Assembly (NCBI GenBank): GCA_050179755.1
Contig: JBFXEV010000001.1
Coordinates: forward strand, 1,061,940-1,125,939
DNA from: Candidatus Babeliales bacterium
GTDB taxonomy: Bacteria > Babelota > Babeliae > Babelales > JBFXEV01
Length of the DNA: 64,000 nucleotides
Direction: 5' to 3'
Shown: one piece after another, positions 11,226 to 22,757 of the stretch
Numbering within the stretch: the first letter of the stretch is position 1
Layout: every line of letters starts with the position of its first letter
The notes under the pieces: generated by a model
The model's database searches: none
Seen by the model: the letters and a program-made list of their open reading frames with translations, nothing else
What the model was told of the DNA's origin: nothing
Translations under genes and position numbers: made by a program

Positions 11226-12197
11226 TTAGTTTTGAGTAAACAGATGTTGCAATTTGGTATTAATATCTTGCATGCTTGTTTGTGCGGTAAAATCACACAT
11301 AAATGGCACTATAGTAATATAGCCTTGTGCAAGAGCAAGGTTGTCTGAATGAGCGGCAGTATCTTTATAATCTACTACGCATAAATCAATACAAAAATTG
11401 TTATCACCTTTATCATACGCTCTAAACACTGTATTTCCTTTAAGATACGTATCATACACTGCGTGGCCTGATTTGCATAATGCAATTCCTTTAATAGGAG
11501 CTTGTTCTGTTGCGTCAGCTTGTAATGCGGGAATATTCATATTTAATAAAACGCCATCAGGCAGAAGTTGATCGTTATCATCACGCTGTGCATCAAGTAA
11601 TTCCACAAAATAAGTAACAAATTTTGCCGTTTCTTGTATACGTGATTCATTTGCTCCTAAATTAATGCTTATGGCAATACTGGGTAGTGATTTTCTCCCC
11701 ATGCATACGCTGCGTGCCACTTGTGCAGCACCCACGGTGCCAGAATGCACACAACGAATGCTTACATTTTCACCACGGTTAGGCCCAGAAAGCACAATAT
11801 CAGGCTCACATCCAGCGCGGTACATTAATTCTTCACCCACAAGCACGCATTGGCCCGGAGTGGCCGGCCAGGATTTCCCTGCAAGTGGCCCAGCAATGTA
11901 GCCTATTTCTGTGCTTTGTACTGCAAATTCTTGATGGCCAAGTGGGATTAATTGCACATGCTTGCTTGAAAGTTGTACTGAGGTGCCGCAACCACTTTGG
12001 TTTGAAGAAGGGGCCACTAAAAATACGTTGTGGCCAGCATCACGCAGAGTTTGTTTGAGTGCTTGTATTTCAAGCGTGTGATAGCCATCATCATTAGTCA
12101 GAAGAATATTGAGCTTGCGTGGTTCTTTTGCGCAGACAAAATTTATTATAGTGGTGTTTGTAAGCACGATGCTGAGTAGGAGAAACATTTTCTTCAT
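11226..12197 (-). CDS. surE: SurE-type 5'/3'-nucleotidase with signal peptide
   Basis: ILLTNDDGYHTLEIQAL N-terminal SurE motif preceded by MKKMFLLLSIVLTNTTIINFVCA. Confidence 0.75.
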   Translation of the reverse strand: MKKMFLLLSIVLTNTTIINFVCAKEPRKLNILLTNDDGYHTLEIQALKQTLRDAGHNVFLVAPSSNQSGCGTSVQLSSKHVQLIPLGHQEFAVQSTEIGYIAGPLAGKSWPATPGQCVLVGEELMYRAGCEPDIVLSGPNRGENVSIRCVHSGTVGAAQVARSVCMGRKSLPSIAISINLGANESRIQETAKFVTYFVELLDAQRDDNDQLLPDGVLLNMNIPALQADATEQAPIKGIALCKSGHAVYDTYLKGNTVFRAYDKGDNNFCIDLCVVDYKDTAAHSDNLALAQGYITIVPFMCDFTAQTSMQDINTKLQHLFTQN

Positions 12198-12564: not shown

Positions 12565-12593
12565 TTGAACTAGTATACTTATTGGAGTATAAT
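12565..12593 (+). promoter_or_regulatory. Sigma70-like promoter TTGAAC-N17-TATAAT
   Basis: Hexamers at 12565-12570 and 12588-12593. The -10 overlaps the listed TTG start, which argues for a downstream start such as the ATG at 12632. Confidence 0.4.
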
Positions 12594-15500
12594 TGAATGA
12601 GTTTTTACATCATGGAAGTGTCATCATTCCTATGTTTCGCTTAAGCTTGTCGGTACGTTTTCAACTAATATTAAGTTTGATTTACTTAGGTCTGATTTTT
12701 TTTGTATGGCCTAGCAAGCTGTACACATATTCTGTGGATACAATAACTTTTTCAGGCTCTTCGTATCCAAATGATTCAAACACCATTAGAGATCAAAAAC
12801 CGCGCATTTCGCAAGAAACTGCAAACATTCGTAGTCGTATTGAAAGCATTAATAATCCTGATACTATCCCTTCTGGTACGTTTCCAAAAAATAACAATTA
12901 TAGTGAGTATGAATTTATAGAAGAACGAGACCGAGATAGAAAAAGAGCAGAAAAAGAAAGACGTGGGCAAGCAGAAAACCAAAAACAAAAAGAAGAAAAA
13001 ATTATACAGAAGGAAGTTGCAAAAAAGTTATTAGATCAATCAAATAGAATTTCATCTTTTACACAGCAAACATCTTCCTCATCTCACTACGCTAAACAAG
13101 ACAAATCACCTGACTATATAACAAAACGCGCCACGTATTTAAAAAAGTTCCATGATGATCCTGATTATTACTACAGATCTACCGTCTATTTAAGGTATTC
13201 AAATTACCAAACAAGATCTCTTCTCGAGCAACACACGATTGATACGGATGAGTTTTATAATGAATTCTTCGGCAATCACTTGCAACATGGAATTCATGAA
13301 GAATATTTAAACATTGTCTCTCGTGTAACTAAAATTAATTTTGATAAAAACAACTGTCAACTCAGATCATTTATTGTATTGGCTGTGCAAACTTCCCGCG
13401 ATAACAATGTAAAAGGCAATTGTGTGACATCTTTAGAAATTAATGATTTTTGTCATCATATCCTGAATCCTAATTATCATGGTTTTCTTGCAGGTCAAAT
13501 TGCTCACTTACAAACAACTATTACCTATTATGAATCAAGTCATTGGAAACAAGCTCTAGGGTATCTAGCAGACGCTGCTCTAGGTGATCAAGAAATGCGC
13601 GCTTGCTTGAATGCTGCTCAAAAGTTTACTGAACAATTCAACATAATAAGGGATTCTCAATATAATGTGCAAGTTATAGAAATTATGGAGCAATTAAGCT
13701 TCAATGAACTTTCTGATCTCACGGCGCAGCGCCAATTTGAATTGTTAGAAAAACATCATGAAGCGATTGCCATAAAAGCATTACGAGCGCTAAATCAACA
13801 AAATATAAAAGATTTGCCAATTTTTGGTTATGCAGTTTCTATTCTTAAATTAGATAATCCACATAATGCATCAAATAGAAAGCTCATTGATTATTTATTA
13901 TATTCTAATGATTGTCTACATCGCGTTCATGAGCTCACGAATACGCCATATAGCTCTTTTCAGCAAAAAAATCCTTTCTTCACCGATAAAGGTATTCTTA
14001 AAGAATATGCTATTATTGCAGATATTGATAATTTGCCTATTCCGCCATTAGATCATTTAAAAAGCCCCGTATCTGCCCACGATTTATTATACACCTATTG
14101 TACAACTAATAAACTTGAGAAAAAAAAATTGGCTTATAGTGGCCTTTATCATGCAACCTATGCAACGATTCATCATCATTCTGAACGCTCAAAAGGCCAT
14201 GAGTTGCTTGCCGATAAGTATTATAAAACACTCTATAGTAGTGTGTTCAGTAAAAATGAAAAACTTATTGATTGGTGTGATGATCTTGCGTGCAGTTATG
14301 AAAACGTGTATCAACAAGAGGTGCACGATGAGCTTGTTTGGCTAACTAATTATTATATTGATACTCAAGAAAAAAGTATTAAAAAAGATGCAATCACCCT
14401 CAGATTGCTTGATGATATTGAGGATACTTTAATTACTGCCCATGGTTATAATCAAGATAATCAGTCAGAAAAAAGTCATGACCTTATTGCAAATATCGTA
14501 CATAACTTTGGTATGCTGCCAAAAGAAAATCAAAAAACACCCGATCTATTTCAATCACTCAATCTACTAGATGTTTCTAGAAATATAAGTAATAAAATAC
14601 AAGCAAGAGTTGCACATATTAAAGTGCATGCATGGTTAAATGATTATAATCTTGAAGAAACACTAGAGTATGCTCGGCATGAGCTTTCAAAAATGGAAAT
14701 ACAGCATGGCAAATTAATATGCCAAGCCGATTCAATTCAAGAAAGACCTGATGAGGTAATTCAATCACTATGTTTAGCAGAAGTTCTTGGATTTAGCGTA
14801 AAAACTGATGCAGATACTATTGATATTGGTTGCATTCCTAAAAAAGATCTTGCAACATTTAAAGACAATTGGCCAGAAGAAGAAGTGGTACAGAATGTAT
14901 TCAACCTTTGGCCTGAAGAAGTCCCCTTGTGTTCTGCAGGGTCACAAGGTGCAGCATATGAACGATATGCTGATCGCTATGATGCCTATCAAGAAACCAA
15001 ACTCACGCCGTATGTTTTTTTTGAAAGAACGTATGAAATTTCGAAAGAAGCTCAACAATTGCTTGATAAAAATGGAATAGATAGTGATTATTTAAAAGTT
15101 GGAACATACAATCGTATACAACATCAATTACATATAGAACTCATTGATATTCTTGAACAAACAACATCTTTAGACGCTCATCAAGAAGTGTGCGATTTAT
15201 TACGCTCGACAAACACTATGATGCTTGATTTTATATCAAGTGCAGCATATGAGAATAAAAATGGCAATATTTTACGCACGTGGACTATTGCTGATTTTTG
15301 TTGGGCAACGCTAGATTGTGGTCAAGCAATTCTTGAGGGAGCTCTTGAGGGCGGTGCTAATGCATTGATCTATCCTTTCAATTGTCCTGTTGAAACAATC
15401 TTGTTTACCGTAGCAGGTAAATATATGTTGTATTATCAACTTACAAAGCTTACTTATGAACTTGGCAGTGCGGTGTACGATCATCTTTCAAAAGAACAAG

Positions 15501-16516
15501 AAGAAAATACATCCAGCGAAACAAAAACTGCAATACAATTACGCGATATTTTAAAAGCTGCATCTTCTTTCGGTGCACAATTTTTGGTAGACCATAAAAT
15601 AGTAAATCCTATAGTTACGCAACGTATTAATTTAATGCAAAGTAAATTGGTCGATAAGTTTGTATTAGAAAATACGACTCAATGGTCTAAAATGAGACCA
15701 GAGGCTATTAAAGCTCCACAGACAGCGCAAGTGCAATTGGCAAGTGGTGAAAAAATTGAAGTAACTTTTCACAATGAAAATTTAGGGCAACGGCCGCAAG
15801 GCTTAAATTCTCCACAGAAACCGCGGAATTCATCGGGTGATAAAAAAGAATATCCAAGACCATCACCTGAAGAAATAGATCGCAATAGAGTAAATAAAAA
15901 TTTAGCAGATAAAGCTCGTAAACAAAAAGCTATTGATAATGCATCTCAAAAAGTGGAAAGAACCAATCGTCAAAAAATTAATACTGCCCAAAATATTCAA
16001 GATGCACAAATTTGTATCTTACATAAATATGACGAATTAGAAAAAATTTTTTATAAACATCTTTCACCTCATGCTGAATTTTTATATAAAAAATTTGGGA
16101 TAAGGATAAAAGGAATTGATTTTTATCATCATATGGAAAGAGATTTTAATCAAAATATAAAAGGTTATACAGGTTTTCATTCGGCACGCAATCATCCTGA
16201 GCATGTTTTTAAACTATTAGATGGTCCTAATGAGCATGGATTTGAAAATATTATTGTTGGTAGTGCAAGAAAAATAAAAAAAGCTCCTACCAGTACGTAT
16301 CCAAAAAACTGGGATGAAATTACTATCGGCCAGAGAGTTATTGAAGGGTTGCTTTCAGGAGAAGTTCATAAAAATAAGGGTGGAATCTTGGAAATACATG
16401 GAAAAGCTCAAAATTATTTACCTCATAGGGGTGTTGTTCCGTTTGATATTACAATTTTTTTAGAACCTAGTGGAATGATAAGGTCATCATTTCCACAATT
16501 AAATTTTAGGAAATAA
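12593..16516 (+). CDS. Giant (about 1300 aa) membrane-anchored protein with EndoU-like C-terminal toxin domain (polymorphic-toxin-like)
   Basis: N-terminal TM helix (LILSLIYLGLIFFVW), a KE-rich region and a long helical body with an internal repeat (HLQHGIHEEY.../RIQHQLHIEL...). The C-terminal ~168 aa (nt 16010-16516) carry GFHS...STYPKNWDEITIGQRVIEGL...IRSSFP, resembling bacterial EndoU nuclease toxin domains. The start may be the ATG at 12632. Confidence 0.65.
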   Translation: MNEFLHHGSVIIPMFRLSLSVRFQLILSLIYLGLIFFVWPSKLYTYSVDTITFSGSSYPNDSNTIRDQKPRISQETANIRSRIESINNPDTIPSGTFPKNNNYSEYEFIEERDRDRKRAEKERRGQAENQKQKEEKIIQKEVAKKLLDQSNRISSFTQQTSSSSHYAKQDKSPDYITKRATYLKKFHDDPDYYYRSTVYLRYSNYQTRSLLEQHTIDTDEFYNEFFGNHLQHGIHEEYLNIVSRVTKINFDKNNCQLRSFIVLAVQTSRDNNVKGNCVTSLEINDFCHHILNPNYHGFLAGQIAHLQTTITYYESSHWKQALGYLADAALGDQEMRACLNAAQKFTEQFNIIRDSQYNVQVIEIMEQLSFNELSDLTAQRQFELLEKHHEAIAIKALRALNQQNIKDLPIFGYAVSILKLDNPHNASNRKLIDYLLYSNDCLHRVHELTNTPYSSFQQKNPFFTDKGILKEYAIIADIDNLPIPPLDHLKSPVSAHDLLYTYCTTNKLEKKKLAYSGLYHATYATIHHHSERSKGHELLADKYYKTLYSSVFSKNEKLIDWCDDLACSYENVYQQEVHDELVWLTNYYIDTQEKSIKKDAITLRLLDDIEDTLITAHGYNQDNQSEKSHDLIANIVHNFGMLPKENQKTPDLFQSLNLLDVSRNISNKIQARVAHIKVHAWLNDYNLEETLEYARHELSKMEIQHGKLICQADSIQERPDEVIQSLCLAEVLGFSVKTDADTIDIGCIPKKDLATFKDNWPEEEVVQNVFNLWPEEVPLCSAGSQGAAYERYADRYDAYQETKLTPYVFFERTYEISKEAQQLLDKNGIDSDYLKVGTYNRIQHQLHIELIDILEQTTSLDAHQEVCDLLRSTNTMMLDFISSAAYENKNGNILRTWTIADFCWATLDCGQAILEGALEGGANALIYPFNCPVETILFTVAGKYMLYYQLTKLTYELGSAVYDHLSKEQEENTSSETKTAIQLRDILKAASSFGAQFLVDHKIVNPIVTQRINLMQSKLVDKFVLENTTQWSKMRPEAIKAPQTAQVQLASGEKIEVTFHNENLGQRPQGLNSPQKPRNSSGDKKEYPRPSPEEIDRNRVNKNLADKARKQKAIDNASQKVERTNRQKINTAQNIQDAQICILHKYDELEKIFYKHLSPHAEFLYKKFGIRIKGIDFYHHMERDFNQNIKGYTGFHSARNHPEHVFKLLDGPNEHGFENIIVGSARKIKKAPTSTYPKNWDEITIGQRVIEGLLSGEVHKNKGGILEIHGKAQNYLPHRGVVPFDITIFLEPSGMIRSSFPQLNFRK

Positions 16517-16517
16517 T

Positions 16518-17318
16518 ATGAATTCATTAATATTAAAGTATAATGATGGTTTTTATCGTTATAATGCATTCCAAATAACGAATGAATTGCTTGATTTGGC
16601 TGTGAGTCTGTTAACTACCGAAGAAATATGTACATCGGATTATTATAAAGAATTTATATACGAATTACCCTATAATACATACTCGGGTAATGCATATTAT
16701 ATGGAAAGAATAGATGATTATATCATTTTGGGTTGTCAATATAGCTTTGAAAGAGCATATTTGCATTTATATCAATTTGAAAATCTTATGAGTCAATGGC
16801 GAAAAGCATATGAAGATAAGCCAACTGAAATGATAATTTCAGTTGATGATAAAAATTTTATTATCTCGTATGAAAAAGATAGTAAGAGTATAAAATTAAC
16901 TTCAACATCAGAATATATAACATCAACATCGTTTTTAAGCGAATATCCTTATGCTGATAACTATGTTGAAATAGAGCCAATCTATGATGAATTACATGTG
17001 TTTGAATCTGATGATCGTAGGTTTAACGTATTTGCTTATTTACTGACAAGCAATATTCCTTCTTCAGATTATGTAGAAAAGTTGCAACAACCTCCTTATG
17101 AATATTATGATGATCGGTACTATTTAGCAATTGTTGAAGATAGAATTCTTATCTATGATAAAACAATGGAAATAAAAGTATTGCCAGCCTATAATAAATT
17201 TCTTGATCTTATGAAACAATGGCCACTAGCAGTACATAAAAAACCAAAACTTATTCGTATATATATTGAAAATGACTATGATCTTAAGATTTTTATATTG
17301 CAGCCAGTTTCTTTATAA
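16518..17318 (+). CDS. Candidate immunity protein (two tandem homologous domains)
   Basis: ATG lies 1 nt after the toxin stop. Acidic and Tyr-rich. The halves align (YYMERIDDYIILG...FENLMSQWRKAYEDKP vs YYLAIVEDRILIY...FLDLMKQWPLAVHKKP). Confidence 0.55.
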   Translation: MNSLILKYNDGFYRYNAFQITNELLDLAVSLLTTEEICTSDYYKEFIYELPYNTYSGNAYYMERIDDYIILGCQYSFERAYLHLYQFENLMSQWRKAYEDKPTEMIISVDDKNFIISYEKDSKSIKLTSTSEYITSTSFLSEYPYADNYVEIEPIYDELHVFESDDRRFNVFAYLLTSNIPSSDYVEKLQQPPYEYYDDRYYLAIVEDRILIYDKTMEIKVLPAYNKFLDLMKQWPLAVHKKPKLIRIYIENDYDLKIFILQPVSL

Positions 17319-19092: not shown

Positions 19093-20148
19093 TCAAACCT
19101 TTAGTTGAGTTGAGGGACCAAAATAGTCACGCGCTCTTTCTAGCATTGCATTAAATTCATGCATATTGGTTTGCGTATCACGAACACCTTCAATATAAGT
19201 AATTCCTAAAATTCCGGAAGCTTTTGGTGCAAAATAAATATAGGCGGGTTTGCCGTGTTGCATTACGCGTACGTGTATAATGTATGTTAATGCGGCAATG
19301 GGCTGCTCTTTAAGGCGAATCAGATGGCCTTGCACAGGAATAATGCCCGAGTCATTGTTAAGTTGTTGTGCGCCTAGCCCGGTACAGTTAATAATAATTG
19401 ATTCATCTAGTTCATCAAAGGAAGTAATAGTGCGTTCATGCAACGAAATGCCAAGCTTTTGAGCGTGTGCTTTCATCTGTTGCATCATGTGATATGTGTG
19501 AATAAAGAGCGTGTTATATTCTCTTACCGCGTGCTGTTTGCCGTTGCCAAAATCTAGAGTGGCAAGCTTGGGCAATCCCCAAAAATTAAGCCGTGAATAT
19601 TTGCTTGTTAGATCTACATATTGCGGCAAGCGTTGTGCGGCAGAGGGTGCAATAAAAGGATGCTCTCCGTTGATAATGGCAGTATACTCTCGTAATGAAA
19701 CTTCTTGTGCGCGTTGGTATTTATTATACACGGGCGTAAAAGCAGTGTAAGGGAAAAATAAACCGACGGCGTTTTGCGACGTGGTGTTATCAAATTGTTT
19801 GGCAACTATTGTTACGGCATAGCCTTTTTGTGCGAGCGCAATGGCGCTTAAAAGCCCCATGCAGCCTGCACCAATAACGCAAATAGGTTTACTTTTGAAT
19901 GAGGGATGTTGCGTAAGTTGCGCTTCAAATTCTTCGAGCACTTGTTCTATAACGCCAAAAAGGAGTGTCCACCCCGATCCGCTGTGGCCATAATTGTGAA
20001 TAATAAGTTTATCATTTTTTACTTCCCCATAGAGTTGATAACCGTTTGCATGCTTAGGGCGAATGCATGATAAAAATTCTTCAATATGATCGGCTGAAAG
20101 AATGGGGGGTGTTAAATGGATTGTTTCCATGTAAGATTCTTGTTGCAT
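19093..20148 (-). CDS. D-amino-acid oxidase family FAD oxidoreductase, apparently circularly permuted
   Basis: HNYGHSGSGWTL (normally C-terminal) lies at residues ~51-62, ahead of the Rossmann motif ICVIGAGCMGLL (~89). INCTGLGA and PVQGH follow. 26 bp upstream of alr on the same strand. Confidence 0.7.
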   Translation of the reverse strand: MQQESYMETIHLTPPILSADHIEEFLSCIRPKHANGYQLYGEVKNDKLIIHNYGHSGSGWTLLFGVIEQVLEEFEAQLTQHPSFKSKPICVIGAGCMGLLSAIALAQKGYAVTIVAKQFDNTTSQNAVGLFFPYTAFTPVYNKYQRAQEVSLREYTAIINGEHPFIAPSAAQRLPQYVDLTSKYSRLNFWGLPKLATLDFGNGKQHAVREYNTLFIHTYHMMQQMKAHAQKLGISLHERTITSFDELDESIIINCTGLGAQQLNNDSGIIPVQGHLIRLKEQPIAALTYIIHVRVMQHGKPAYIYFAPKASGILGITYIEGVRDTQTNMHEFNAMLERARDYFGPSTQLKV

Positions 20149-20258
20149 AAGTAATAAAAGAATATTTGTTCAAGTATACAAAGAGTACCATGTGTCATGA
20201 AGAATGGGAATATGATATGCTAGTACTACTATATATTGGGATCTCTATAGGAAAATTA

Positions 20259-21884
20259 ATGAGAAAATTACACATTTTTTTAATTGTTATAATTTTAAGC
20301 CTTGGTGTCTATTGGGTTTGGTTTAAGCAATCTACGTTATCTCCATATGAGCTCTATAAAAATGAAATCCCTTATACATATCGTCTTGGACTTACTTCGT
20401 TAGAGCAAGAAATAATTATAGATAAGGTATCTATAATGGGGCACATTCCTGCATGGCTTTCTGGTACCTTGTTTCGTAATGGACCAGCCAAATTTACGCA
20501 AGGATCTAATTGGGTTTCCAATTGGTTTGATGGGCTTGCTATGATTCATGCTTTTTCCTTTCATGATGGCAAAGTTTCTTATGCCAACAAATTTTTACGC
20601 TCCGATGATTATGATTTTGTAGAGAAAACTGGAACTATGTCATATGCTGGTTTTGCACAAGATCCCTGTAAATCATATTTTAAACAATTATTTTCTTTGT
20701 TTGTGCCCGAAAAGAAGATAAAAAAAGAGTACGCATTGCCGAATGCAAATGTTAATATTGCATGTTATGGGCATCATATGGTGGCACTCACAGAAACACC
20801 TTTACCTATTGAATTTGACCCAAAAACTTTAAAAACAATTGGCGGTTTGCTTTACGATGATAAACTTCCAAAGCGTAGTATTCACGATACTGCTCATCCA
20901 CACTACGATAAAGAACGTAAAGAACATTTAGGGTATTATTCTCAATTTGGTAGAATTAGTACGCATAATCTTTTTCGTATACAAGATGGGTCTACTACTC
21001 GGGAAGTTCTGGCATCTATAGAAGTGCAAGAGCCTTCATACATGCATAGTTTTTTCTTGACAGAACATTATGCAATATTGACATTGCTGCCTTTGGTGGT
21101 GAATCCTCTTGATTTATTAACGAGTAAGAAGTCATTTATCAAGAACTTTAGATGGAAACCAGAGCTTGGAACCAAGCTAGTAGTCATTGATAGAATTAAT
21201 AATAAGATTCAGGGGTCATATAACACGCATGCGTTTTTTGCCTTTCATACGGTAAATGCTTTTGAGCAAGGTGACTCTCTTATAATGGACATTGTTACCT
21301 ATCCTGATGGTTCAGGAATTGGACAAGCAAAAATAGCCACAATTTTTGAAGGGAAGAATCCGGGAAACTTAGAACGCAATAAAGTATATACCGGAGAGCC
21401 AGACACAGATATTCTTGAGGTAGGTCAGCTAAATCGATTAACAGTGAATCTTTCGAGTGCGACTGTTGCTGTGCGTACGTTATATGATAACTTTATTGAG
21501 TTACCTCGTATTAATTATGAGCATTATAATACAAAACAATATTCCTATATCTATGCCTATGGAAAAAAGTATGCACCATTATTTGTTGCCGATAGGCTTG
21601 TAAAGGTTAATGTGAATACGGGTAAGTCTATTGAATGGTGGCAAGAGCATTGTTACCCCGGAGAGCCGATATTTGTAGCAGCTCCTTCGTTAAAATCGGA
21701 AGACGATGGAGTTATTCTTTCTGTTGTGCTTGATACACAAAAACAGACATCATTTTTGTTAGTGCTAGATGGTGAAACTTTTAAAGAACTGGCGCGAGCT
21801 TATGTGCCACATCATATTCCTTTTGGGATTCATGGACTCTTTATGGCTAATTCTTTCTTTTTAGGTGCGCCCAGCCGGGGTTGA
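20259..21884 (+). CDS. Carotenoid cleavage oxygenase (RPE65/CCD) family protein with N-terminal TM anchor
   Basis: FDGLAMIHAF, HPH.D, MHSFFLTEHY, FHTVNAFE and the terminal FGIHG motif (four-His iron site pattern). The ATG at 20259 is preferred over the TTG at 20166. Confidence 0.8.
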   Translation: MRKLHIFLIVIILSLGVYWVWFKQSTLSPYELYKNEIPYTYRLGLTSLEQEIIIDKVSIMGHIPAWLSGTLFRNGPAKFTQGSNWVSNWFDGLAMIHAFSFHDGKVSYANKFLRSDDYDFVEKTGTMSYAGFAQDPCKSYFKQLFSLFVPEKKIKKEYALPNANVNIACYGHHMVALTETPLPIEFDPKTLKTIGGLLYDDKLPKRSIHDTAHPHYDKERKEHLGYYSQFGRISTHNLFRIQDGSTTREVLASIEVQEPSYMHSFFLTEHYAILTLLPLVVNPLDLLTSKKSFIKNFRWKPELGTKLVVIDRINNKIQGSYNTHAFFAFHTVNAFEQGDSLIMDIVTYPDGSGIGQAKIATIFEGKNPGNLERNKVYTGEPDTDILEVGQLNRLTVNLSSATVAVRTLYDNFIELPRINYEHYNTKQYSYIYAYGKKYAPLFVADRLVKVNVNTGKSIEWWQEHCYPGEPIFVAAPSLKSEDDGVILSVVLDTQKQTSFLLVLDGETFKELARAYVPHHIPFGIHGLFMANSFFLGAPSRG

Positions 21885-21991: not shown

Positions 21992-22453
21992 TTACCTATA
22001 TTTCTCATAAAAATAATTCGTGAATAGTTCATGAGGATCATGCTGCTTTCTTAAATTAAGTAATTTGTGTAGAGAAGGATAAGCAGCTTGTATGTGCTTT
22101 GCGTCAGCATGAAGTTGGATTGGCAAGTAATAGGTTCCGTTTAAAGATATAGCAGTATTAATTAATTGCTGCGTCCATAATTTTGTAGTCGTGTTAGCAT
22201 CTTCTGTCATTGGTTGATTGAAAAATACTACAATACCAACACGATCTGTTGTGGTATAAGAAAGAAAGCTTTCTGTATTGCGGGGAATAAAGCGAAATGC
22301 CGCATGAAACCCTATTGTTGGGTCTTGCGATACGATTTTTAGATGTTCTACATATGCGGGCATTGTTAAATGTACCGTTTCTTGTTTGTAGAAGCTATGC
22401 CCGCCATTGGTAAGGCGAAAAAGTTCAGCGTTTTCACTACGGCTTGCGGTCAC
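21992..22453 (-). pseudogene. C-terminal remnant of an FAD-linked oxidase (DprE1/ALO-like)
   Basis: Only ~150 aa, ending NGTYYLPIQLHA...AYPSLHKLLNLRKQHDPHELF. The FAD-binding domain is missing. A signal-peptide mini-ORF (MQKKLIFIILFALSLSLY...) lies upstream in a different frame. Confidence 0.45.
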
Positions 22454-22757
22454 GATTGTGCCGTCAGCTTCATAATCTTGAGCGAATGTACAGACTCAAT
22501 GAGAGAGCAAAAAGGATAATAAAGATCAGTTTTTTCTGCATAGTTTATTTTGGCATAAATTGGTAAAAAATCTATATTTATCAATTTCAAATAGAATTTC
22601 CACATGACTGAGATGATTGATAAAAGAGCAGAAAATATAAGGACTTACTACACGAGAGAGGACAATTTTGTATGCTTGATTGCTTTGTTTACTTTGTGAT
22701 GTTTATCATTGTATCTTAAGTATTGGTATTAACTTTTTTTAATTTGAAAGGATTATT

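Follow-up and report, generated by a model that had tools for sequence, protein, structure and literature searches.

The locus

This study concerns a gene for a D-amino-acid oxidase (DAAO)-like flavoprotein of the DAO superfamily, which lies in a 64,000-nucleotide stretch of a Candidatus Babeliales genome (contig JBFXEV010000001.1, positions 1,061,940 to 1,125,939; this whole stretch is called the window below). An earlier reading made from the sequence alone (the sequence-only reading) had placed this gene 26 bp upstream of the alanine racemase gene alr on the same strand. The list of open reading frames (ORFs) and the PF01168 and PF00842 matches bear this out: alr is downstream, the gap being 26 bp. 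The NCBI call of the flavoprotein starts at Met7 and gives 345 aa, and a 100% identical protein from a Candidatus Babeliales (Dependentiae) metagenome-assembled genome (MAG) is annotated there as 'FAD-dependent oxidoreductase'.

The dinucleotide-binding motif GxGxxG of this protein is internal (residues 93–98) rather than N-terminal, and the HNYGH motif (51–57) comes before it. An N-terminal module, residues 8–85, comprises the strand that carries the carboxylate-binding arginine (C28-I29-R30-P31), a beta-hairpin, the HNYGHSGSG loop (51–59) and a helix (63–80), and an 8-residue linker (81–88) joins it to the first strand of the Rossmann unit. The larger module, residues 86–346, holds NCTG (254–257), PVQGH (271–275) and Y305, and ends after a helix at 330–343. 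The positions of these elements, with their counterparts in pig DAAO, are given in Table 1 together with those of the neighbouring genes.

Table 1. Features of the DAO–alr locus and residues of the flavoprotein with their pig DAAO counterparts
Feature	Position in window	Strand	Evidence or counterpart
Permuted DAAO-like flavoprotein gene, 351 aa	19093..20148	(-)	ORF list; Pfam DAO 100.2 bits
Residues 8–85, module that is C-terminal in canonical DAAO	19894..20127	(-)	Matches DAAO/DDO residues ~270–340
C28-I29-R30-P31, G-x-R-P equivalent	20056..20067	(-)	Read from DNA; corresponds to pig DAAO R283 motif
H51-N52-Y53-G54-H55-S56-G57	19978..19998	(-)	Read from DNA; pig DAAO H307–G313; aligned to HNYGHGG of pig/human DAAO
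G93-A94-G95-C96-M97-G98, dinucleotide-binding GxGxxG	19855..19872	(-)	Read from DNA; aligned to DAAO residues 7–12
Residues 86–346, Rossmann start, remaining FAD domain and substrate/interface domain	19111..19893	(-)	Matches DAAO 3–~265
R30 (in CIRP)			Pig R283 of GFRP, carboxylate anchor; invariant
G57			Pig G313; invariant
S124 and AVGLFFPY stretch			Pig T45 and AAGLWQPY, FAD/substrate site; S124 invariant
NCTG (254–257)			Canonical NCTG; N254 and C255 invariant
Y305			Pig Y228; invariant
alr, alanine racemase, 374 aa	17942..19066	(-)	PF01168 E 2.7e-61; PF00842 E 8.7e-38
RPE65-type carotenoid oxygenase gene	20166..21884	(+)	PF03055 E 5e-115; divergently adjacent to DAO
surE	11232..12197	(-)	

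Circular permutation of the chain

Judging from its sequence, the gene product is a genuine and ancient circular permutation of a DAAO-like flavoenzyme, because its matches to DAAO and D-aspartate oxidase (DDO or DASPO) fall into two parts of swapped order that become one colinear match when the chain is un-permuted in silico. In its native order the protein scores 100.2 bits against the Pfam DAO profile (PF01266, gathering threshold 27.9 bits), split in two stretches, the main one placing residues 89–346 on profile positions 2–299 of 353; the N-terminal 79 aa by themselves match positions 298–346 of the same profile (E 1e-4). The sequences of the Protein Data Bank (PDB), searched with the single protein, gave the same division: residues 86–333 align with 6–255 of the Rhodotorula enzyme (RgDAAO), residues 45–77 with pig DAAO 301–333, and residues 29–81 with Rasamsonia DAAO (7ct4) 327–379. 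When a family profile built from 36 homologs was compared with the PDB sequences, its positions 86–349 matched pig DAAO 3–263, positions 41–79 matched pig DAAO 300–338 and positions 24–84 matched 7ct4 325–385, while the sole stretch matched by the D-aspartate oxidase 9vpf was positions 25–68, on residues 315–358 (E 7.5e-11). The N-terminal HNYGH segment is thus homologous to the DAAO C-terminus, which profile and pairwise alignment had been proposed to decide.

Re-joining residues 86–346 to residues 8–85 produced a single colinear Pfam DAO match over positions 2–346 of 353, with 109.1 bits as against 100.2 for the native chain, and the re-joined sequence aligned colinearly with pig DAAO 3–331, human DAAO 3–325 and human DDO 15–325. 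The canonical topology, in which the Rossmann unit is N-terminal and the HNYGH module C-terminal, is not that of the native chain and is restored only by this un-permutation. The sequence-only reading had held that about 75 residues of the DAAO C-terminus had moved to the N-terminus; the moved segment amounts to ~78 residues, and the break point that it gave is correct, the chain ending at about DAAO residue 268. The junction is clean: the C-terminus ...MLERARDYFGPS is the counterpart of the pig DAAO helix ending ...IWEGCCR, and the N-terminus ...IHLTPPILSADHIEEFLSCIRP that of LEPTLKDAKIVGEYTGFRP. Where canonical DAAO goes on with ...LEPTLKNA..GFRPVRP the chain stops, and the homolog of that stretch, LTPPILSADHIEEFLSCIRP, begins the protein.

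Predicted fold

Structure prediction, another of the checks proposed at the outset, returned a confident DAAO-like fold of two domains. The AlphaFold2 model, computed with the 36-sequence alignment, is one compact fold with a mean predicted local distance difference test score (pLDDT) of 92.1 and a predicted TM-score (pTM) of 0.90. The N-terminal module is modelled at pLDDT 92–98 and consists of strands 8–11, 22–33, 38–44 and 47–53 followed by helix 63–80, a strand-strand-strand-helix order that is the same as that of the canonical C-terminal module; the 8-residue linker then leads to the Rossmann unit, with strand 89–92 and helix 96–107. In a Foldseek search of the PDB, ranks 1–33 were occupied exclusively by DAAO or DASPO, at probability 1.00 and with TM-scores of 0.47–0.61 over ~275 columns. 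TM-scores in this range are to be expected from a sequential aligner such as Foldseek when roughly one fifth of the residues are permuted, since the permuted module cannot be aligned together with the remainder. Weaker matches were to glycine oxidase, sarcosine oxidase and opine dehydrogenase (E 1e-6 to 1e-5 for glycine and sarcosine oxidase).

Distribution of the permuted family

The permuted layout is not peculiar to the window gene; a search for homologs of the same order found it to be common to a large, multi-phylum family. More than 100 proteins of ~350 aa, drawn from NCBI, ENA, JGI and Logan assemblies, cover 94–98% of the query at 40–78% identity (a few shorter, fragmentary entries reach 78–85% coverage), and the start and end points are the same across the 36 aligned homologs. 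Beyond the Dependentiae, species-representative genomes carry the permuted order in Sphingomonas, Xanthomonas, Bradyrhizobium, Dyella and Acidobacteriota, as well as in Planctomycetota, Verrucomicrobiota, Myxococcota, Bacteroidota and Rhabdochlamydiaceae (Chlamydiae). HNYGH stands ~35–45 residues before GxGxxG in 83 of the 85 ORFs extracted from these genomes, the other two, from Nannocystis (L054) and Melainabacteria (L069), having the canonical order, and the Xanthomonas protein shows a likewise swapped match, its residues 63–119 falling on DAAO 274–337. When 1.84 billion representatives were searched exhaustively with the profile, 201 clusters (50% identity) reached E <= 1e-30, and the 150 clusters listed mostly match the family profile in one colinear stretch. 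Scanning metagenomes with the single protein as query recovered no new Dependentiae loci and only remote marine relatives of the type with a twin-arginine translocation (Tat) signal. Members of the family go under the names 'FAD-dependent oxidoreductase' (NCBI) and 'D-amino-acid oxidase' (UniProt automatic annotation).

These data bear on whether the order could be an artefact, due either to faulty assembly or to a chimeric or decaying gene in which the tail of one DAO copy is joined to a 3'-truncated second copy, as the pseudogene remnant of a tandem duplication. Textbooks derive circular permutation from a duplication whose product is then truncated at both ends, and a close relative does have two tandem DAO genes 2 bp apart (P0010 and P0004). 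Both of these copies, however, are full length and already permuted. The same start and end points recur in the more than 100 full-length homologs and in 83 of 85 ORFs of unrelated genomes, the homologs come from several sources rather than from a single contaminated assembly, invariant residues occur in both modules, and the model is single, compact and confident. An artefact or pseudogene is therefore ruled out by conservation across independent assemblies from many phyla, and we regard this explanation, of which the sequence-only reading had named the assembly rearrangement as an objection, as extremely improbable.

Some members of the family differ in architecture. The tandem paralog P0010 (L081/L084, 3871..4998, just upstream of P0004) is a permuted DAO of 375 aa with 51% identity and a Sec-like hydrophobic N-terminus, and at L081/L084 an APH/choline-kinase gene lies between the RPE65 gene and DAO; the window has neither the APH/choline-kinase gene nor the tandem paralog. 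P0215 (779 aa) and P0216 (768 aa) are fusions of an N-terminal SufS-like class-V pyridoxal-phosphate (PLP) enzyme (TIGR01979 E 3.8e-78, below cut-off) to a C-terminal permuted DAO domain of the subfamily called A below, and constitute a second link of the permuted flavoenzyme to a PLP-dependent amino-acid enzyme. Five further proteins of 457–533 aa (P0170, P0181, P0184, P0226 and P0245) carry an insertion of ~110–190 aa directly after the GHLI(T/S)LK(N)QP strand, and one cluster member of these variants is from a Verrucomicrobiota MAG.

Active-site residues and enzyme class

The alignment of the 36 homologs, which share 41–77% identity, contains 45 invariant positions distributed over both modules. 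They include C28, R30, H51, N52, G54, G57, G93, A94, G95, C96 and G98, and also S124, N254, C255, Q273–H275 and Y305. Among the pig DAAO residues to which these correspond (Table 1), R283 binds the substrate carboxylate and Y228 forms a hydrogen bond with it; Tyr224 of the mammalian enzyme is the lid of the active site. The counterpart of G-x-R-P-x-R is C28-I29-R30-P31-K-H, with Gly replaced by Cys and, in the window clade, the second Arg by His; the HNYGHSGSG loop and the helix that follows it correspond to the canonical (HN)YGHGGxG loop (pig 307–315) and terminal helix, and are aligned to pig 300–338. GxRPxR and YGHGGxG have been described as hallmarks of bacterial DAAOs (PMC9844085). Motifs of both types are present in the window protein, in reversed positions.

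RgDAAO, pig and human DAAO and human DDO were the best PDB sequence matches, and on sequence grounds the permuted protein belongs with DAAO/DDO rather than with ThiO or DadA. We accordingly assign it as a DAAO-like flavoenzyme of permuted order, an FAD-dependent oxidase or dehydrogenase of amino acids whose stereospecificity, substrate and electron acceptor are putative.

Two other assignments were considered and rejected. As a DadA ortholog the protein scores 27.7 bits with NF001933 (cut-off 383) and 23.7 bits with NF009074 (cut-off 494), the match being limited to the Rossmann end; as a glycine oxidase ThiO (TIGR02352) it scores 56 bits against a cut-off of 250.8, again at the Rossmann end only. 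The glycine oxidase 7cyx gives an insignificant match to the single protein (E 0.71), and glycine oxidase a marginal one to the family profile (E 0.0013), confined to the Rossmann region (profile positions 83–128).

Subfamilies and export signals

A neighbour-joining tree of 37 sequences (321 columns, 100 bootstraps), in which two canonical sequences were permuted in silico for alignment, separates two deep permuted subfamilies. Subfamily A comprises the window protein, other Dependentiae, a Rhabdochlamydiaceae MAG and a small group (L003/L005/L006/L007); it has PVQGH at the canonical RGQ position, and in its Dependentiae alignment Cys28, for the Gly of GxRP, and Cys96, in GAGC, are invariant. 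Subfamily B, with members from Proteobacteria, Acidobacteriota, Planctomycetota and others, keeps RGQ and GLRPxRP (e.g. GLRPFRP). The two canonical sequences split from all permuted ones with 100% support. Tree and shared break point agree, and are compatible with a single origin of the permutation, in what is a weak test with two canonical sequences.

A twin-arginine signal precedes the mature domain in at least 59 of the 83 permuted ORFs (e.g. MDRRRFIASTALLALPGC and MHRRHFLRSAGVALAAAS), and a lipobox Cys is present in at least 31 of the 83; such N-termini are seen, for example, in L009, L013, L030, L043, L051, L070, L071 and L088–L096. Because of these signals, Tat export is predicted for the permuted family outside the intracellular lineages, with many members as lipoproteins and a presumably periplasmic location. 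The window protein has no signal peptide, and the paralogs P0009 and P0010 have Sec-like hydrophobic N-termini.

Pairing with alr and the gene neighbourhood

The DAO gene adjoins alr in all four members of the clade at 77–78% identity or above (the window, P0003, P0004 and P0005). All three relatives examined at 77–78% identity have the order DAO–alr–SurE, the first two genes abutting in P0003, lying 17 bp apart in P0004 and overlapping in P0005. L006, from a distant Babeliales MAG (33% identity), has the inverted order alr–DAO on one strand, 62 bp apart; this is an independent arrangement of the two genes, and supports a functional link between them. In the window the two genes are probably co-transcribed. 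A promoter and terminator scan around DAO–alr found sites no more often than in shuffled sequence, and no dadR/lrp-type regulator adjoins the pair in the window.

The sequence-only reading had described a dadA/dadX-like pair. The adjacency stands, at 26 bp and conserved in the close clade; family-wide pairing does not, nor does orthology to DadA (27.7 against 383). Given that alr adjacency is limited to close relatives and L006, and that the protein is not a DadA ortholog, the pairing can be put forward only as a hypothesis: the analogy to dadA/dadX (L-Ala <-> D-Ala -> pyruvate + NH4+) is plausible and the best available one for the window clade, rather than a property of the family.

The wider neighbourhood was surveyed in a census of 96 flanking ORFs from genome loci, which found no conserved partner, the most frequent families occurring in 2–3 loci; gene calling in this census was crude, and the DAO gene was lost in several GC-rich loci. 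A gene of the YjgF/RidA family (PF14588 E 2e-25) adjoins the permuted DAO at two related MAG loci, L003 (3259..3816, (-)) and L004 (3280..3942, (-)). Its product, a predicted imine deaminase, would suit an oxidase that produces imino acids, which is suggestive. Peroxiredoxin-type genes were found near the permuted DAO in two loci, and the RPE65–DAO neighbourhood is kept in the relatives L081 and L104.

Two regions of the window that flank these genes differ from the relatives. Between alr and surE, at 12593..17318 (+), are two ORFs without a Pfam match (1307 aa and 266 aa), whose block has a GC content of 28–35% as against 42–44% for DAO and alr; it looks like an insertion, because surE directly follows alr in the relatives L081, L100 and L104. 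At 21992..22512 (-) lies a remnant of a D-arabinono-1,4-lactone-oxidase-like FAD gene, where tblastn with the 499-aa homolog of L100 recovered only residues ~155–243 and 356–475, in different frames. The remnant is probably a decaying pseudogene, the 153-aa ORF listed there being its tail.

Proposed function

Taken together, we consider it likely that the gene product is intact and functional, an FAD-dependent oxidase or dehydrogenase of amino acids that belongs to the DAAO/DDO lineage and whose chain is circularly permuted. The elements found at the chain end of canonical DAAO, i.e. the carboxylate-Arg strand, the beta-hairpin, the HNYGHxG loop and the terminal helix packing on the flavin domain, are here supplied by residues 8–80; the linker leads to the first Rossmann strand and GxGxxG (89–98), and the chain ends past the helix which, in canonical DAAO, comes before the Arg strand, so that the same two-domain fold and active site would be built with new termini. 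R30 and Y305 would hold a D-amino acid by its carboxylate, with the amino group close to the backbone of G57, and the substrate would pass a hydride to N5 of FAD; the resulting imino acid would hydrolyse to a 2-oxo acid and ammonium, and either O2, with formation of H2O2, or a different acceptor would reoxidise FADH2. As it lacks a signal peptide, the protein should be cytoplasmic in the Babeliales genome. Given this location and the position of its gene before alr, its likeliest role would be to remove or catabolise the D-alanine that the racemase makes, along the pathway L-Ala <-> D-Ala -> pyruvate + NH4+. The homology of the two modules, their order, their conservation and a confident DAAO-like fold are established by the results above; stereospecificity for D-amino acids, D-alanine as substrate, action as an oxidase or as a dehydrogenase, and transcription together with alr are the parts of this proposal that we infer.

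Several results weigh against it. Among the 11 Dependentiae loci, six do not have alr nearby (P0007, P0008, P0011, P0029, P0058 and L041), and among the 80 genome loci alr is within 4 kb in a single case (L006) and absent from the other 79; since the adjacency is absent from most loci, D-alanine may not be the substrate of the permuted family. The equivalent of the pig lid Tyr224 is not conserved in the alignment, PVQGH replaces the canonical RGQ, Cys replaces Gly in GxRP, and Phe occupies the position of pig Q53. Literature searches found no biochemical characterisation of any permuted member.

It is conceivable, then, that the protein is a permuted flavoenzyme of the DAO superfamily that acts on something other than D-alanine or a D-amino acid (glycine, sarcosine, an opine, a peptide containing D-amino acids or another amine), the proximity of alr being a lineage-specific accident. 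The restriction of that proximity to one shallow clade and one other genome, the lack of any neighbour conserved across phyla, the weaker Foldseek matches to glycine oxidase, sarcosine oxidase and opine dehydrogenase and the altered motifs of subfamily A all speak in this direction. On the other hand, the carboxylate Arg, the Y228-equivalent Tyr and the DAAO/DDO-type HNYGHxG loop are all retained, the sequence and fold matches to DAAO/DDO are far stronger than those to glycine and sarcosine oxidases, and two independent gene orders tie the permuted DAO to alr. We therefore judge such a substrate to be unlikely, and retain an amino-acid oxidase or dehydrogenase of the DAAO/DDO lineage as the preferred interpretation.

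If the enzyme does act with alr on D-alanine, it might serve cell-wall D-alanine homeostasis or detoxification, as a safety valve on the peptidoglycan D-alanine pool, instead of a dadAX-like catabolism feeding pyruvate. Dependentiae are reduced intracellular bacteria, a lifestyle that homeostasis would fit; in the relatives the genes that come after alr are surE and unrelated ones, none of them for transport or catabolism; and the absence of an adjacent dadR/lrp-type regulator points the same way. Against this, the chemistry of homeostasis and catabolism is identical and the sequence cannot separate the two, and a homeostatic role seems to us somewhat doubtful.

Significance of the permuted family

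Circular permutations of Rossmann-type flavoenzymes are rare, and DAAO is an industrial and biosensor enzyme. NCBIfam contains no model specific to the permuted family and gives only sub-threshold ThiO and DadA matches, the PDB sequence and Foldseek matches are all to structures of canonical order, with no solved structure having the permuted one, and literature searches on circular permutation and DAAO, and on DAAO in Dependentiae, Xanthomonas and bacteria, found nothing describing the permuted family or the permutation. The permutation defines a widespread, generically annotated and apparently undescribed branch of DAAO-like flavoenzymes, which may have escaped notice because searches that rely on motif order miss such proteins. 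It provides a natural test of fold plasticity, in that two active-site elements, the substrate Arg and the HNYGH loop, have moved to the front of the chain along with a helix that stabilises the flavin, while the fold is kept, and a permuted DAAO would be useful for folding studies and for DAAO engineering.

The known range of bacterial DAAOs may also widen, as the permuted family is found in whole genera, e.g. Xanthomonas and Sphingomonas. The Tat and lipobox signals suggest that D-amino acids are oxidised in the periplasm, a prediction open to direct testing in culturable species. More tentatively, and with rather less than even confidence, we propose that Gram-negative bacteria have, as their chief enzyme of DAAO type, an ancient and hitherto unrecognised permuted lineage. 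Free-living members of the Proteobacteria, Acidobacteriota, Planctomycetota and Verrucomicrobiota would export this D-amino-acid oxidase by Tat, often with a lipid anchor, and it would act in the periplasm on D-amino acids derived from the cell wall or the environment; in the intracellular Dependentiae it would have lost its signal and been recruited beside alr as a cytoplasmic D-alanine oxidase. A review of 2022 counted only about ten known bacterial DAAOs, all from Actinobacteria, and noted that such genes are hard to find (PMC9844085); if true, our proposal would overturn the view of bacterial DAAOs as confined to Actinobacteria (PMC9844085).

Comparison with known systems

The nearest characterised relatives are the eukaryotic and actinobacterial DAAO (EC 1.4.3.3) and DASPO (EC 1.4.3.1), for example pig/human DAAO (1VE9/2DU8), Rhodotorula DAAO (1C0I) and human DASPO (6RKF). 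With these the window protein has in common the FAD-binding Rossmann GxGxxG, NCTG, the R-P substrate strand, the HNYGHxG loop, the terminal helix, a Y228-type Tyr and the two-domain fold. It differs from them in the permuted order, with the last ~78 residues coming first, in that Tyr224 is not conserved, and in having PVQGH for RGQ and Cys for Gly in GxRP, and its identity to them is only ~17–23%. ThiO and monomeric sarcosine oxidase (PF01266) share the superfamily fold, but have the canonical order and give weaker matches.

The dadA-dadX operon of E. coli and Pseudomonas encodes a D-amino-acid dehydrogenase and a catabolic alanine racemase. The window pair resembles it in that a flavoenzyme gene of the DAO superfamily directly precedes, on the same strand, a gene for alanine racemase, and the predicted chemistry would be shared; unlike DadA, however, the window flavoenzyme is of the DAAO/DDO branch, is permuted and is not an ortholog of DadA, and the pairing is not family-wide. 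A further comparison is with the permuted proteins of Xanthomonas, Sphingomonas, Bradyrhizobium, Acidobacteriota and others that carry Tat signals (e.g. WP_218499138.1), which have the permuted order and break point of the window protein, with GxRP and HNYGHGG ahead of GxGxxG. They differ in belonging to subfamily B and in having a twin-arginine signal, often a lipobox Cys, the canonical RGQ and no alr neighbour, and are 25–29% identical to the window protein.

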